Below, piece after piece: positions 57,886 through 61,800 of a stretch of DNA of 64,000 nt. Source of the DNA: Patescibacteria group bacterium (lineage in GTDB: Bacteria > Patescibacteriota > Minisyncoccia > UBA6257 > GWB1-50-10); the NCBI GenBank assembly GCA_023474215.1, contig JAMCYI010000016.1:8265-72264 (forward strand), read 5' to 3'. The notes under the pieces were generated by a model. The model worked only from the letters and a program-made list of their open reading frames with translations. It was not told where the DNA came from and ran no database searches. Every line of letters starts with the position of its first letter. Position 1 is the first letter of the stretch. Both the position numbers and the translations under genes were made by a program.

Positions 57886-57960
57886 AAATTTGCATTGAAC
57901 CCGACGCCGGCGAAGCCGCCCCAGAGGCCGTCGAGGGTATTTATGTACGAATTCGACGTT
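57886..57960 (-). pseudogene. orphan 3'-terminal gene fragment (...LDGLWGGFAGVGFNANF*) homologous to the C-terminus of the giant gene at 58825
   Basis: DNA and protein alignment to 58825-58900 (...DGVGFNANF*); no upstream ORF. Confidence 0.5.
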
Positions 57961-58038
57961 CGCGGCAAACATGCTAAAATAATAGGAATAGAAAAACCTT
58001 ATCCCCAAACTTTACGAAGTCCAACTTCGTAAAAGACC

Positions 58039-58809
58039 ATGCTCAGGATCAAGCCATCCACGGGGAACATCTATCATATATACAACCGGGGGGTTGACAA
58101 GAGGAAAATTTTTCTTGACGAGGAGGACTACTTCCGGTTTATTCATGACCTCTTCGAATTCAATGATGAAGCGCCCGCAATAAACATCTACTATAAGGCG
58201 CCAAATTTCAAATCTTACGAAGTTGGACTTCGTAAGATTAGCCCTAAAGTCAAAAGAGAACCGAGGAAGCTGCTCGTGGAGCTTATGGCATTCTGTCTTA
58301 TGCCGAACCATTTCCATCTCATGGCGCGGCAATTAGGAGACAACGGCATAACAGAATTCATGAGAAAGCTTGGGGGTGGCTATACTAACTATTTCAACCT
58401 GAAGTATCACAGAACCGGATCTCTCATGCAGGGAAAATACAAGTTCGCACTCATTAAAAACGAGGCGCATTTTATCCATCTCCCCTATTACATCCATCTC
58501 AATCCTCTTGATATGGCGGCGCCTGAATGGAGAGAGAAAAAAATTGAGAACTACCGCAAGGCCATGAAGTTCCTCGAAAATTATCGCTGGAGTAGTTTCC
58601 AAGATTACATCGGGAAAAAGAATTTTCCATCAGTTACCCAGCGAGAATTTCTCACAGAGTTCTTTGATAGTCCCCAAAACTACAAGGTCACCATAGAACG
58701 ATGGCTCAAAGAATTGAATATGGAAATGGATCCCGATGAGGCAAAAACCGTATTTTTCGAAGACGATGAAGATAAGAAGAAACCAATCTTACGAAGTTGG
58801 ACTTCGTAA
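58039..58809 (+). mobile_element. RAYT/IS200-like Y1 HUH tyrosine transposase gene, copy B, flanked by inverted REP hairpins (family 2)
   Basis: IYHIYNRGVDKRKIF...MAFCLMPNHFHLMARQ (HUH)...YIHLNP; REP cttacgaagttggacttcgtaag at 58789-58811 and internally at 58213-58235, and its reverse complement at 58010-58032. Confidence 0.75.
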
Positions 58810-58824
58810 GATTGGGGATGGGGA

Positions 58825-61800
58825 TTAGAAGTTGGCGTTGAAGCCGACGCCGTCAAAGGTGCTTGAAAGCCCGTCATACACGAACTCGACATAGTCGGTC
58901 TTGTTAGCGGTTGTCGTGAGGGTCGGCGCGACGCCGCTTGACCAGCGGACATTCCCCGGCCATGTCACGAGCCTGCTCCCCGTCGCATCCTGTTTTAAGG
59001 CGAGTGTGTAGTGGCCGCCCGGCTGGCCGTTATTGAAGGTGAGTGCGATCGGTGATGCGCCGAGGACCAGCGTCTGGGTATTCCCATTCAGCCAATTAAT
59101 AGTCGTTGCCCCGGTTGCCGTTCCATTATCGTGTTCGATGGAATACATCGAACCGCCAACCGCCAAGTTGCCCGATTCAACCATCGATGCCTGTGTCAGA
59201 GATACCTGCGCCACCGTCGCCACGTAATTCGCGTTCTCCGCAGTCGTGAAGTTGTAGATAACCCACCCATCATGCCCTTGGTTCATCATCCTCACCCTGT
59301 TCGCATTGCCTGTTCCATACAAATCGTTACCGTAAACCTGAACCGCATACGCCCCGTAAGTTACGTTTGTGCTAAGCTGTGCGATACGTATGGCGGTAAA
59401 AGGCATATTGGCAAAGTCTGAATTTTGCAGCACAGTTATCTGCGCCCCGTTGCCATACTGGATCGAAGCAATAAACTTAATGACTTGGTGCTGAGAAGAT
59501 TGAGTGTTTTCGACAAGAAATTCACCATACCCCCTTCCTCCAGACAGATAACCAACCGTATACCAATTGGTAGTGGTGGATACGGTCGTCCATGCTCCGA
59601 TGGAAGAAAGAAAATTGCCGTCTTGTACAATATCGCCATTCAAGTTCGCCGCATAAGGCATTGTGTTGGCGGCGGGATCAAGGTAATAGTTTGTGTTGTC
59701 GCGATCGTAAAAGATTGAGGCTTGCACGTTTCCGTTCACATCAAGAGCGGTAGCGGCTGTCTGTCCAGTATTTATGCCCACATAATGATTTGAGCCACTG
59801 AACCAAGCAATATTTCCCCCTTCTCCATCGCCAACGTTAAAGTTACGGTATTGAGTCATACCATCAGCCAGACCCCGATAATTTATCCACATATCGTTTC
59901 CGGATGAATATCCACTGTTCAGCGTATTATAATTCGTGGGACTCACATATATTTGTCCGCCCAATAACGCTCCTCCCTCAACATCAAGCTTCATATTTCC
60001 AGCTGGACTCGCTGTTCCAATCCCGACGGTGCCGGAGATTTCTGCAAGGTATATGTTAGCGCTGGGATTAATATGAATAGGATACCAAGCATTTAGTGCT
60101 GCATTGTGTCCTCCTATATAAACGTTGCTGGTGTTATATTCTCCCAAAACTACGTATGCCGTAGCCCCACCAAATATTCCACGACCCGCCCAGCCAGTTG
60201 AATCTGCGCCAACCACCTGCAGGCCGACGGAATTAGACCCACTATTCACAGACAAGGGGTATCCAGGACTTGTCGTATCGATTCCAACATTGTAGCTCGT
60301 GCTGTTTGTATAAAGATTCGAACCGGAAAGCGTCCAGTAGCCAACGCTCGAACCGGAGCCGCCTGCTACGGCTGATTTCACGTAGGCAACAGTCGCAGCG
60401 TAGTTGTTGTTCACATCTGATGCGTTGGGAATAGCTATATCCCCATTCGCAACAAGGAGGCCACTATTTGAATCAGGAGCAGTTGAAGTGCCGATGCTCA
60501 CTTTTCCAGCATTGAAGTATGAGTTTGCACCAGTGTTACCGTTCAACTGAACCGTTATTGCTTGACCAGAGGGCGTTGAAGCACTGTTGTATAAATTGAG
60601 TTGGCCAGCGGCCGTTGCGTTGTTCGAGCCGCCGGGGTTGCCTATAATACTCGCGAGCGTAGAATTACCCACGCCCGATTGGAGTTGCCAGAAATACCCT
60701 TGACCGTAATTACCTATGTAATTGTAAACATTCGTGCTGCCGCCTGATCCCGTGGTTGAGAGATAATAATCCGCTCCACCGGTATGAGATGCTGCACTCA
60801 ACACAAGGTTGCCATTGACATCCAATGTTCCTCCGGGTCCAGTAGTCCCAATCCCAATGTTCCCGCCCGAGTCGAAGATGTCAATAGCTGGAGCGGAGAC
60901 ATCCGCAATATTCGCCTCGGATGTCAAAAGAGCGGCCGACCAGCCACCACCCCAACCACTCTGACTGCCGTAGCTGGCAATGAAATCCGAAACATCAATT
61001 GCTTCATAATTCCAAGGGGTTCCCGTTGTGCCGAGCAAGATAACATTTTTACTTAAAGAACTGTCATACGCCAAACGGACCGAAGAGAAAGGTGCCCGTC
61101 CGCTTATCTGAGCCGAGTAGTTGTACCATGCCGAGTTGGGTTGATAATTGTATCCTCCAACACGAGCTTCCCATGCCCCATTATTATTGGCGTAATCATA
61201 ACCCCGAATTGTCATTTGCATCATAGTGTTATTCCAACTGTTGGGCATGATGATTTCAAGAGTGCCAGTATGTGTACCGCCTCCCACGTAATAATGAAGG
61301 ACATTCCGGTAGTGCAGGATGCTTCCTCCGTTCGAGTCGAGCATCGGGCCGGTTACTTCAAGTTTTGCACCCGGAGCGGTGGTGCCGATCCCAACTGAGC
61401 CGTTCGCTTTTATGATCGCAATGCCGGCACCCGAGCTTGAGTCGAATCGTATGTCGTTCGCAACGACGGTGGATCCGATGTGAATAGTTTCGGTGGACGA
61501 ATCCTGCCCCATAAGCCAGTTGCCGGCAGCTCTCAATGCTTGATTCTGGGGAATATCTATCGAGCCGCCAGCGTTTAACGCGTACGGCATGATATTCCCG
61601 GACGGGTTCAGGTAGTAGTTCGTGTTCGCGCGGTCGTAGAGGACGGAACCCACATTGATGTTTCCGTTTACATCGAGGTTGGTGCCGGGGGAAGTGGTGC
61701 CAATTCCGACATAACCATTGTTGTTAAATGTTACCATCGGAGTTCCACCGACATAGCCATTCGCACTCGATCCATCCGTGAAAAAGTTGATTGGTGCTGA

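Follow-up and report, generated by a model that had tools for sequence, protein, structure and literature searches.

The 64,000-nt stretch of Patescibacteria DNA analysed here (hereafter the window) carries, near positions 57,883-58,902, a transposase gene accompanied by three matched DNA hairpins, and this unit lies between the stop codon of a giant gene and a second, displaced set of its last ~25 codons. We consider it probable that it is a REPtron-like unit of Patescibacteria, in which a transposase of the REP-associated tyrosine transposase (RAYT) type is combined with palindromes resembling repetitive extragenic palindromes (REPs), and that it integrates at the 3' ends of genes with a 75-130-nt duplication of the gene tail. 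This reading draws on the fold and catalytic motifs of the transposase, on hairpins that match within each unit and covary across the family, on their dispersal in related genomes, on an empty site in a relative, and on the recurrence of tail relics at other loci (feature coordinates are collected in Table 1).

Sequence and modeled fold place the product of the open reading frame (ORF) at 58039-58809 among the Y1 HUH transposases of the RAYT/TnpA-REP type, as the initial annotation had proposed. Its match to Pfam Y1_Tnp (PF01797) lies above the cut-off (25.4 bits against 23, E 1.6e-5), and an AlphaFold model (mean pLDDT 69) contains the HUH core, with 4ER8, the E. coli TnpA-REP bound to a REP hairpin, as the top Foldseek match (E 1.1e-4), followed by the TnpA proteins of IS608 and ISDra2 (2A6M/2XM3, E about 1e-4 to 1e-3). 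The motifs NHFH, LFQG, YIHLNP and RWSS are all present, residues H91, H93, Y151 and N155 are invariant in 82 sequences, and family members range in length from 233 to 256 aa, with a conserved C-terminal tail that is helical in the model and in which a Pfam search gave no DnaA_C/helix-turn-helix (HTH) domain. More than 7,231 homologs were retrieved at E <= 1e-10, the best 120 of which are 61-80% identical to the window transposase, and those whose source is named all belong to Patescibacteria groups (e.g., Wolfebacteria, Colwellbacteria and Liptonbacteria). Among 50,697 phage records there was a single weak match, at 25.6% identity.

The hairpins share a 21-nt palindromic core, TTACGAAGTTGGACTTCGTAA, found at 58215-58235 (hairpin B) and 58789-58809 (hairpin C) on the plus strand and as its reverse complement at 58012-58032 (hairpin A), which amounts to six strand-matches compared with 0.00 expected from dinucleotide shuffles. 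Between the internal and 3' copies, identity extends over 29 nt (AATCTTACGAAGTTGGACTTCGTAAGATT). When folded as single-stranded DNA (ssDNA), all three form perfect stems with 3-nt loops (z-scores from -6.5 to -10.4), without any bulge and with a foot that reads (C)AATCT...AGATT(G). Six nucleotides separate the core of hairpin A from the ATG, and the TAA stop codon of the transposase (58807-58809) sits in the 3' arm of hairpin C. Cores are thus found before, inside and over the stop of the ORF, which bears out the earlier description of a RAYT gene bracketed by inverted hairpins; the three copies given there stand, although their coordinates were off by one base and, of the 23 nt quoted, the upstream copy shares 21. 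REPs that flank RAYT genes are a classic arrangement (PMC3333891).

The giant gene product has a hydrophobic segment at its N terminus, IGTTxPG repeats and, at its C terminus, a PF26209 (Phage_phiTE_241_C) domain, the last label being taken from precomputed annotations, with no match in a local-library Pfam scan of the giant protein. PF26209 is a common module that ends in [GA]FNANF in the closest relatives. The relic on the far side of the unit (X') has its stop codon at 57883-57885 and reads NSYINTLDGLWGGFAGVGFNANF before the stop (in longer form, LDGLWGGFAGVGFNANF), and the giant gene itself ends in VEFVYDGLSSTFDGVGFNANF (its tail being X). DNA identity between X and X' amounts to 74-82% in the best blocks and 60-65% over full alignments of ~75-79 nt, the VEFV codons of the relic being thrown into another frame by an indel of 10 nt. 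Inside the window alone this match is modest (tblastn E 0.03), and it becomes convincing because of an ortholog of the relic in a related locus, L205, and because of its position relative to the empty site in another, L206. The transposase unit starts ~10 nt past the relic, leaving no room for a gene body. The duplicate gene end that the initial annotation had pointed out is real.

In L206, the gene end is 85% identical at the DNA level to window positions 58824-59130, and its stop codon is followed after 26 nt by the ATG of a cupredoxin gene (86% identical to 56884-57370) and directly thereafter by a permease gene, without a transposase, relic or PF05635 cassette between gene end and permease. 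Gene and cupredoxin are likewise adjacent in L207 and L208, which are more distant. In L206, the stretch with the cupredoxin promoter, aaggtcgatatgttataataaaa, matches aaggttcatttgctataataaaa in the window just beyond a PF05635 cassette, which implies that the relic stop holds the ancestral position of the host gene stop. Third codon positions diverge by 30% between the window and L206, which is of the same order as the divergence between the relic and the intact end. X is 91% identical to L206, compared with 82% for the gene body; this similarity gives no sign of a foreign replacement end, and conservation of the domain can also explain it. In L205, where the transposase is 80% identical to that of the window, cupredoxin, cassette, relic and transposase are colinear at 71% nucleotide identity. 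Its relic reads GGLSSTFDGVGFNANF before the stop, and its last 13 codons plus stop match the protein of the intact window gene with only synonymous differences, which suggests that the L205 relic has been converted from L205's own intact copy. With its relic common to the window and L205, the insertion is old. A more remote locus, L188 (58% identity, with another hairpin), has the cupredoxin, the transposase and a convergent PF26209 gene, and no relic.

Relics of this kind recur. The last 45 residues of the convergent neighbor were compared with the 450 nt upstream of its transposase gene in 40 units, and seven of the 40 units with a convergent neighbor, the window included, have a same-strand relic: six by protein search (L192, E 5e-15; L173, 2e-14; L196, 3e-13; L189, 5e-7; the window, 9e-5; L193, 7e-4) and L157 at the DNA level. 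Their host genes are unrelated and comprise LamG-like genes (DDVRIYNRAL, ending in LYNLGR), a membrane protein gene (ending in RHRLADFWRVILKGKPH) and PF26209 genes. The geometry does not vary among them: gene body, X and stop; 0-15 nt; hairpin C, the antisense transposase gene and hairpin A; 0-40 nt; X' and its stop. The repeats measure 75-130 nt in five of the seven, the other two being local alignments of 176 nt (L196) and 248 nt (L157) at ~60% identity; relic and tail are 58% to 90% identical, and the relic starts at the foot of hairpin A in L173, L157 and L196. Taken with the empty site in L206, this recurrence supports the original proposal that the insertion duplicated the 3' end of the gene. 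The targets are gene 3' ends in general (LamG-like, membrane and PF26209), and the suggested preference for a GFNANF-stop sequence does not hold, GFNANF being the conserved end of PF26209. In addition, L174 contains two units that are 94% identical over 872 nt and 2.8 kb apart, which implies that the unit can duplicate as a whole. These two copies, at 1127-1998 and 3955-4814, each extend ~60 nt past both hairpins and carry a ~38-nt direct repeat (GACACCACYCCKCCCGCCGC...) at both ends.

As a separate observation, the inner boundary of X at 58890-58900 (CGACTATGTCG in gene orientation) lies within a short palindromic sequence, CGAC-TAT-GTCG, after which comes TTCGTG (TTCGTA in the relic), similar to the hairpin arm ACTTCGTAA; the L192 tail likewise has GATGTCC, a match to the hairpin arm of L192, and these are too few cases to test. 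Shufflon-type or invertible C-termini were also considered and rejected, the copies being direct and not inverted.

Table 1 Features of the transposase unit and of its host gene in the window
Feature	Position	Strand	Remarks
Host giant gene, 1152 aa	58825..62283	-	Converges on the transposase gene
X, intact last ~25 codons and stop of the giant gene	58825..58902	-	~91% identical to the gene end of L206
X', relic of the last ~25 codons and stop, PF26209-type	57883..57960	-	Frameshifted, no gene body
Transposase gene, Y1 HUH (predicted), 256 aa	58039..58809	+	Pfam, homologs, invariant motifs, structure model
Transposase motifs			H91/H93 in NHFH; catalytic-type Tyr151 in YIHLNP
Hairpin A, 10-bp stem, loop CCA	58011..58033	+	Loop orientation opposite to that of B and C; ATG follows after 5 nt
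Hairpin B, 13-bp stem, loop TGG	58211..58239	+	In frame; encodes QSYEVGLRKI-type residues ~58-67
Hairpin C, 15-bp stem, loop TGG	58783..58815	+	Holds the transposase stop; core search, folding, terminator scan
Promoter-like site for the transposase gene (TCGACG, 16 nt, TAAAAT)	57953..57980	+	Consensus scan
DnaA-box-like 9-mer, TTATCCCCA	57999..58007	+	Abuts hairpin A; sequence; kept in L199, L202 and L205

Hairpin B is not peculiar to this locus and proved to be conserved and covarying across the whole family. Here we used 80 loci fetched from metagenomes and five from genomes, with 81 distinct genes in the within-gene control; the loci from metagenome assemblies are subject to the fact that palindromes can break or collapse contigs. 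Most family genes have a perfect hairpin at one shared codon position, with a stem of 7-22 bp and widely differing sequence (e.g., ttacgaagt, tattgattt, ctgtcgctgt, ctggcgacat and ataaggacgt). The longest perfect stem of the coding sequence (CDS) falls in the 85-nt internal window (12% of the CDS) in 52 of the 81 genes, and stems of at least 9 bp occur there in 43 genes as against seven elsewhere in the CDS. In a gap-free alignment of 43 hairpins, pairing holds in 91% of cells, nine of 14 pairs vary on both sides (103 cells), and the covariation score is 0.484, compared with 0.116 after shuffling and at most 0.096 with slid partners; as the inner seven pairs were chosen for pairing, the weight rests on the outer pairs and on the within-gene and cross-locus controls. 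Neither the outer stem CAATCT...AGATTG nor the reading frame varies, which points to a single ancestral origin of the internal hairpin. A recent REP insertion peculiar to the window gene was rejected, since the QSYEVGLRKI segment aligns through all homologs, the paralog included. In the AlphaFold model this segment is part of a loop on the N-terminal side of HUH, flanked by helix 28-40 and strand 80-87, and pLDDT falls below 50 for residues 48-68.

In most genes, the internal stem is matched by its own flanks: it recurs within 150 nt 5' of the ATG in 49 of 56 genes (cross-locus control 1.8%) and around the stop codon in 41 of 53 (control 3.0%). There are 33 distinct inner arms among 58 genes. 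In L205, for example, the internal and 3' copies are both AGGT-TGA-ACCT (CTTACGAGGT-TGA-ACCTCGTAAG), with the 5' copy keeping the AAGT-CCA-ACTT of the window, and this shared variant indicates that the internal and 3' copies change in concert. The loop of the 5' copy is inverted relative to the internal one in 23 cases and the same in 18, and that of the 3' copy is the same in 21 and inverted in 13.

Such matching could also arise if the internal hairpin were a functionless ancient REP that sits in a permissive loop and is kept in step by passive gene conversion, an explanation that we hold to be possible but somewhat unlikely. It would account well for the disordered loop and the variable length of its flanks, for the weak stems in a quarter of the family, and for in-frame REPs in other genes, such as the giant gene of L001; moreover, in-frame REPs of RAYT subclass 2.4 have been reported without a proposed function (PMC6006769). 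Less readily explained are the retention of one codon position and frame down to 54% identity to the window protein through 33 stem variants, and the persistence of the hairpin despite the deletion risk posed by 29-nt direct repeats 574 nt apart. The stem is kept even where coding forces a mismatch, ten interior mismatches being A.A, several of them where a perfect pair would give an in-frame TAG.

The hairpin is also found far from transposase genes. A scan of 185,579 species genomes (596 Gb) for TTACGAAGTNNNACTTCGTAA, with 18 fixed bases, gave at least 118 loci among the matches listed, compared with ~9 by chance on our own estimate, and many of them are solo hairpins in Patescibacteria metagenome-assembled genomes (MAGs) with no transposase close by. 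The Wolfebacteria MAG JAPLZW01 has one transposase unit with three hairpins (L105) and at least seven solo copies on other contigs, the Paceibacterota MAG JBAYJV01 has seven hairpin copies, and a single solo copy is present in the genome that carries P0003. Outside long ORFs, 20 of 47 copies sit no more than 40 nt past a stop codon, a few of these 20 being hairpins that flank RAYT units; ~14 solo ones are located within long ORFs of other genes, and both orientations occur. In L067, a solo hairpin lies 14 nt past the stop of a gene similar to the giant gene of L001. The dispersed hairpin is, by its distribution, REP-like in its behavior in related genomes (compare PMC3733652), and the view of the initial annotation that it belongs to a repeat family is supported, several solo copies being present per related Patescibacteria genome.

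Several further details of this dispersal were seen. A solo hairpin at 3281-3330 of L001 lies in frame in a giant IGTTxPG-repeat gene and encodes NPNLTKFNFVRL. Beside the solo hairpin of L067, a second palindrome of the same shape and another stem (CCTATCGAGGT-TGA-ACCTCGATAGG) occupies 1040-1068, which implies that two hairpin variants coexist as a doublet. Partial arm repeats (e.g., ACTTCGTAAGA-CTTCGTAAGATT) adjoin the solo hairpins of L011, L015, L020, L033, L054, L067, L097, L099 and L100, and might have been left behind by recurrent cutting and rejoining, or by slippage. Finally, the 9-bp stem TTACGAAGT/ACTTCGTAA with another foot (GCRTTACGAAGTnnnACTTCGTAAYGAG) is multi-copy in unrelated phyla: Kapabacteria OY762428.1 (L010, L021, L022, L027, L048, L053, L065, L066, L070, L084, L094, L111 and L115), one chromosome of which has at least 15 copies, Cloacimonadota (L004, L012, L016 and others) and Verrucomicrobiae (L024 and L109).

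Most likely, the enzyme would bind the hairpins on ssDNA, cut near the CAATCT...AGATTG foot and rejoin. This putative cutting and rejoining would spread solo hairpins to sites just past stop codons and would occasionally move the whole unit, and the three copies may be kept identical by conversion, or by an exchange that the enzyme or recombination drives. The duplication of the gene tail would be a recurrent outcome of unit integration that leaves the host gene intact. As the route we prefer joint movement of the unit and the gene tail beside it, with re-entry at the homologous site; this would proceed through one-ended (read-through) Y1 transposition, or else a circle [A-gene-C-X] would recombine in the Campbell manner. 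A target duplication of great length would be an alternative to both. Once in place, the direct repeats X and X' would also offer a route for the precise loss of the unit. A bolder version, in which the unit is a homing Y1 element that carries replacement last 25-40 codons together with a protected master copy of the hairpin in its own ORF, strikes us as rather unlikely. If it were true, a homing unit would enter coding 3' ends without harm and excise precisely, an integrase-like logic executed by a HUH enzyme, and the variable inner stem would be swapped, by the enzyme or through repair templated on the hairpins, as a cassette among the three sites and the solo copies, with the CAATCT/AGATTG foot fixed.

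A number of observations weigh against a REPtron-like unit that duplicates gene tails. To our knowledge, Y1 transposition makes no target duplications, so that repeats of 75-130 nt need an extra step. L206 is nearer to the window (85-86% at the nucleotide level) than is L205 (71%), and yet lacks the unit and both PF05635 (IVP) cassettes, which implies several precise losses or lateral exchange. The GT[AG]G guide is absent from the foot of the window hairpins, and no fourth copy of the hairpin core occurs elsewhere in the 64 kb. In approximately a quarter of the family, the internal stem is weak (no more than 6 bp). A strict same-strand geometry like that of IS608 is not evident, the orientation of the flanking loops not being conserved, and 198 loci and the window contained no 5'-truncated mini-elements bounded by the internal and 3' hairpins. 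Finally, the transposase falls short of the NCBIfam equivalog NF047646 (REP_Tyr_transpos), with 33.8 bits against a cut-off of 80 (37.1 for the paralog).

The absence of the unit from a close relative, the pair of whole units in L174, 94% identical and separated by 2.8 kb, and the fold resembling the TnpA of IS608 and ISDra2 would all suit an ordinary autonomous element of the IS200/IS605 type, with hairpins A and C as its subterminal ends and the tail repeat incidental. We regard this as decidedly unlikely. The tyrosine motif, YIHLNP, belongs to class 2, defined by Y---NP, and not to the Y---Q of a true IS200 protein, which measures ~150 aa (PMC6006769), whereas the present proteins have 233-256 aa and a conserved C-terminal tail. 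No near-identical copies exist in the window, where the paralogs are 49% identical with different hairpins; the cupredoxin-RAYT-PF26209 synteny persists at 80% (L205) and 58% (L188) protein identity; solo hairpins outnumber genes in related genomes; and no partial copies were found. The unit thus shares with IS608 and ISDra2 the Y1 HUH fold, the subterminal hairpins, the expected action on ssDNA and, once, in L174, whole-unit duplication, and differs from them in its dispersed solo hairpins and in having no multi-copy identical elements. IS200/IS605 elements are not known to make long flanking direct repeats.

The hairpins might instead be RNA elements (5' leader, pause or processing site, 3' stabilizer or terminator) that covary at the RNA level, which appears quite improbable. 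All three copies do lie inside the predicted transcript, and REPs are known 3'-UTR elements (bioRxiv 10.64898/2026.03.23.713779; PMC3733652). On the minus strand, moreover, hairpin C precedes TTTCTTCTT and is scored as resembling an intrinsic terminator for the giant gene, the T-run of this sequence being the reverse of the C-terminal Lys codons of the transposase. However, no T-run follows A, B or the sense strand of C, the orientation of the loop flips freely, solo copies are found either way round and also within other ORFs, and the closest solved relative of the enzyme binds this kind of DNA hairpin. The stems are almost purely Watson-Crick: the signature expected of RNA structure, an excess of G-U pairs, was looked for in the family hairpins and is absent, interior mismatches being T.G in seven cases and C.A in four. 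Because G-U pairs are few and the mismatches show no RNA-type bias, it is more likely that the structure is selected or repaired at the DNA level.

It is very improbable that 57883-57960 is a decayed tandem paralog unrelated to the arrival of the unit: PF26209 genes are indeed multi-member and often encode small proteins, the relic is 60-82% identical to the intact end, and L188 has the same synteny without a relic, but such paralogs are set aside because there is no room for a gene body before the unit starts and because the empty-site relatives hold one gene directly before the cupredoxin, and the geometry recurs beside hairpin A at six other loci with unrelated targets on the convergent strand. 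The case in which the relic is a separate decayed gene, named in the initial annotation as the one that would speak against an insertion, is by the same empty sites not borne out.

Upstream of the transposase gene, the promoter-like site has a TG-extended -10 element (TGCTAAAAT at 57972-57980, by consensus scan) and coincides with the conserved left edge of the unit; a 'gctaaaataa...ttatcccca' stretch is kept in L199, L202 and L205 by sequence comparison, and 57953-57980 may be the promoter of the transposase gene. The DnaA-box-like 9-mer next to hairpin A has counterparts, TT[AT]TCC[AC]CA being found within 160 nt 5' of the ATG in 11 of 78 family genes compared with ~1.4% expected. Such a 9-mer also lies ~50 nt 5' of the ATG of the second transposase copy in the window (about 38592), and the perfect form TTATCCACA stands beside the 5' hairpin in L144, L145, L160 and L171. 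These upstream 9-mers are of interest because the tails of RAYT subclass 2.1 have been likened to DnaA domain IV (PMC6006769).

The second transposase copy (37784-38542) is 49% identical to that of the unit, and has a weak internal stem only and no matching 3' palindrome. A G-rich palindrome (AAGGCCCCCCG.TCTCCT...) lies upstream of it at 38599-38645 and recurs at 30042-30088, 31 nt past the stop of a 1519-aa gene, which upholds the earlier pairing of this RAYT with a different, G-rich REP; the same palindrome is also listed at 35377-35394.

Two genes of PF05635 (23S rRNA intervening sequence/four-helix bundle), at 57522-57812 and 56471-56818, each lie within their own ~21-24-nt inverted repeats, AATTTGAAATTTGAAATTTTTAAT and aaattttcaatttacaatttt. 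The corresponding regions, 57403-57867 and 56420-56890, are both absent from L206 and look like small inserted cassettes; in L202, a truncated PF05635 cassette abuts the transposase unit. As both genes are Avd-like and adjacent, a template/variable pair of a diversity-generating retroelement was considered for X and X' and rejected: there is no reverse transcriptase, and the copies differ by indels and by substitutions of every type, not adenine-specific ones.

Among known systems, the closest is the E. coli TnpA-REP, or REPtron, which cleaves folded single-stranded REPs in vitro and joins them again (Ton-Hoang 2012, PMC3333891; Corneloup 2021, PMC8266576). Shared with it are the Y1 HUH fold (best structural match 4ER8), a gene bracketed by its cognate palindromes, the class-2 Y...NP motif, and the dispersal of palindromes near gene 3' ends in related genomes. 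The window unit differs in having perfect stems without a bulge, no GTAG guide (the GT[AG]G foot being a hallmark of canonical REPs according to Quentin et al., PMC6006769), a third hairpin in frame, ~90 aa of additional length, with 40 residues inserted ahead of HUH and a conserved tail at the C terminus, a score below the NCBIfam RAYT cut-off, and a host in the phylum Patescibacteria. In-frame REPs in RAYT genes are already known from one published precedent, subclass 2.4, in which GTAG-footed REPs lie inside tnpA-REP between HuH and Y (PMC6006769). As in that subclass, the cognate palindrome is inside the transposase gene, the frame is kept and the site is a peripheral loop; here, however, the hairpin is N-terminal of HuH and at one fixed codon position and frame family-wide, and the motifs are FQ and YIHLNP instead of WQ and YIxNNP. 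In its motifs, length and SS-containing tail the protein resembles instead subclass 2.1, or TIRYT (De Nocera 2013, PMC3733652; Quentin 2018), which is characterized by NH[YF]H, FQ, Y[IV]HLNP, ~238 aa and SS in the tail (PMC6006769), a likeness judged by eye against Table 1 of that paper and not with the authors' HMMs. Subclass 2.1 was reported to lack REP-like sequences and to have only GGGG[AT][CG]A[CG] terminal inverted repeats (PMC6006769), whereas the flanks of the present family are palindromic hairpins and the tail has no Pfam DnaA_C-like HTH. A family-wide outer GGGGAT terminal repeat was rejected as well, as it occurs only in the four closest relatives, and a GGGG run lies near the unit ends in three of 49 and three of 42 flanks. 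In-frame palindromes are likewise tolerated in coding regions in the form of Rickettsia palindromic elements and intragenic REPs (De Nocera 2013, PMC3733652); those are scattered among host genes, while the copy described here is fixed and covarying within the enzyme's own gene. What is new is therefore the combination of subclass-2.1-like motifs, non-canonical perfect palindromes, a fixed covarying intragenic copy and recurrent long tail duplication.

Integration into a gene 3' end has a parallel elsewhere. Elements such as e14 and phage 21 in icd, and islands in tRNA genes, enter the 3' end of a gene and bring a replacement end. They rely on site-specific recombinases of the tyrosine or serine type and on short cores that are identical. 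The unit described here has the same outcome, with the host gene intact, a displaced copy of its 3' end, and repeats that would permit precise excision; the window unit, in contrast, encodes a HUH/Y1 enzyme only, with no integrase adjacent, and the likeness would be one of working and not of family membership. In the searchable literature, whose coverage is incomplete, our search turned up no paper dealing with Patescibacteria RAYTs or with the duplication of gene tails by Y1 units.

REP/RAYT is the best-known case of a domesticated transposase that lives with its own population of short repeats, and it has been studied almost exclusively in Proteobacteria and Cyanobacteria. The locus described here opens a family of more than 7,000 proteins of the candidate phyla radiation with the recognition hairpin in their own CDS, and its dozens of matched enzyme-hairpin pairs form a natural data set on how Y1 enzymes read hairpins. 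The recurrent duplication of the host gene tail suggests an integration route not described for HUH/Y1 elements, and it may help to explain the reshuffling of surface-protein loci in these tiny genomes.

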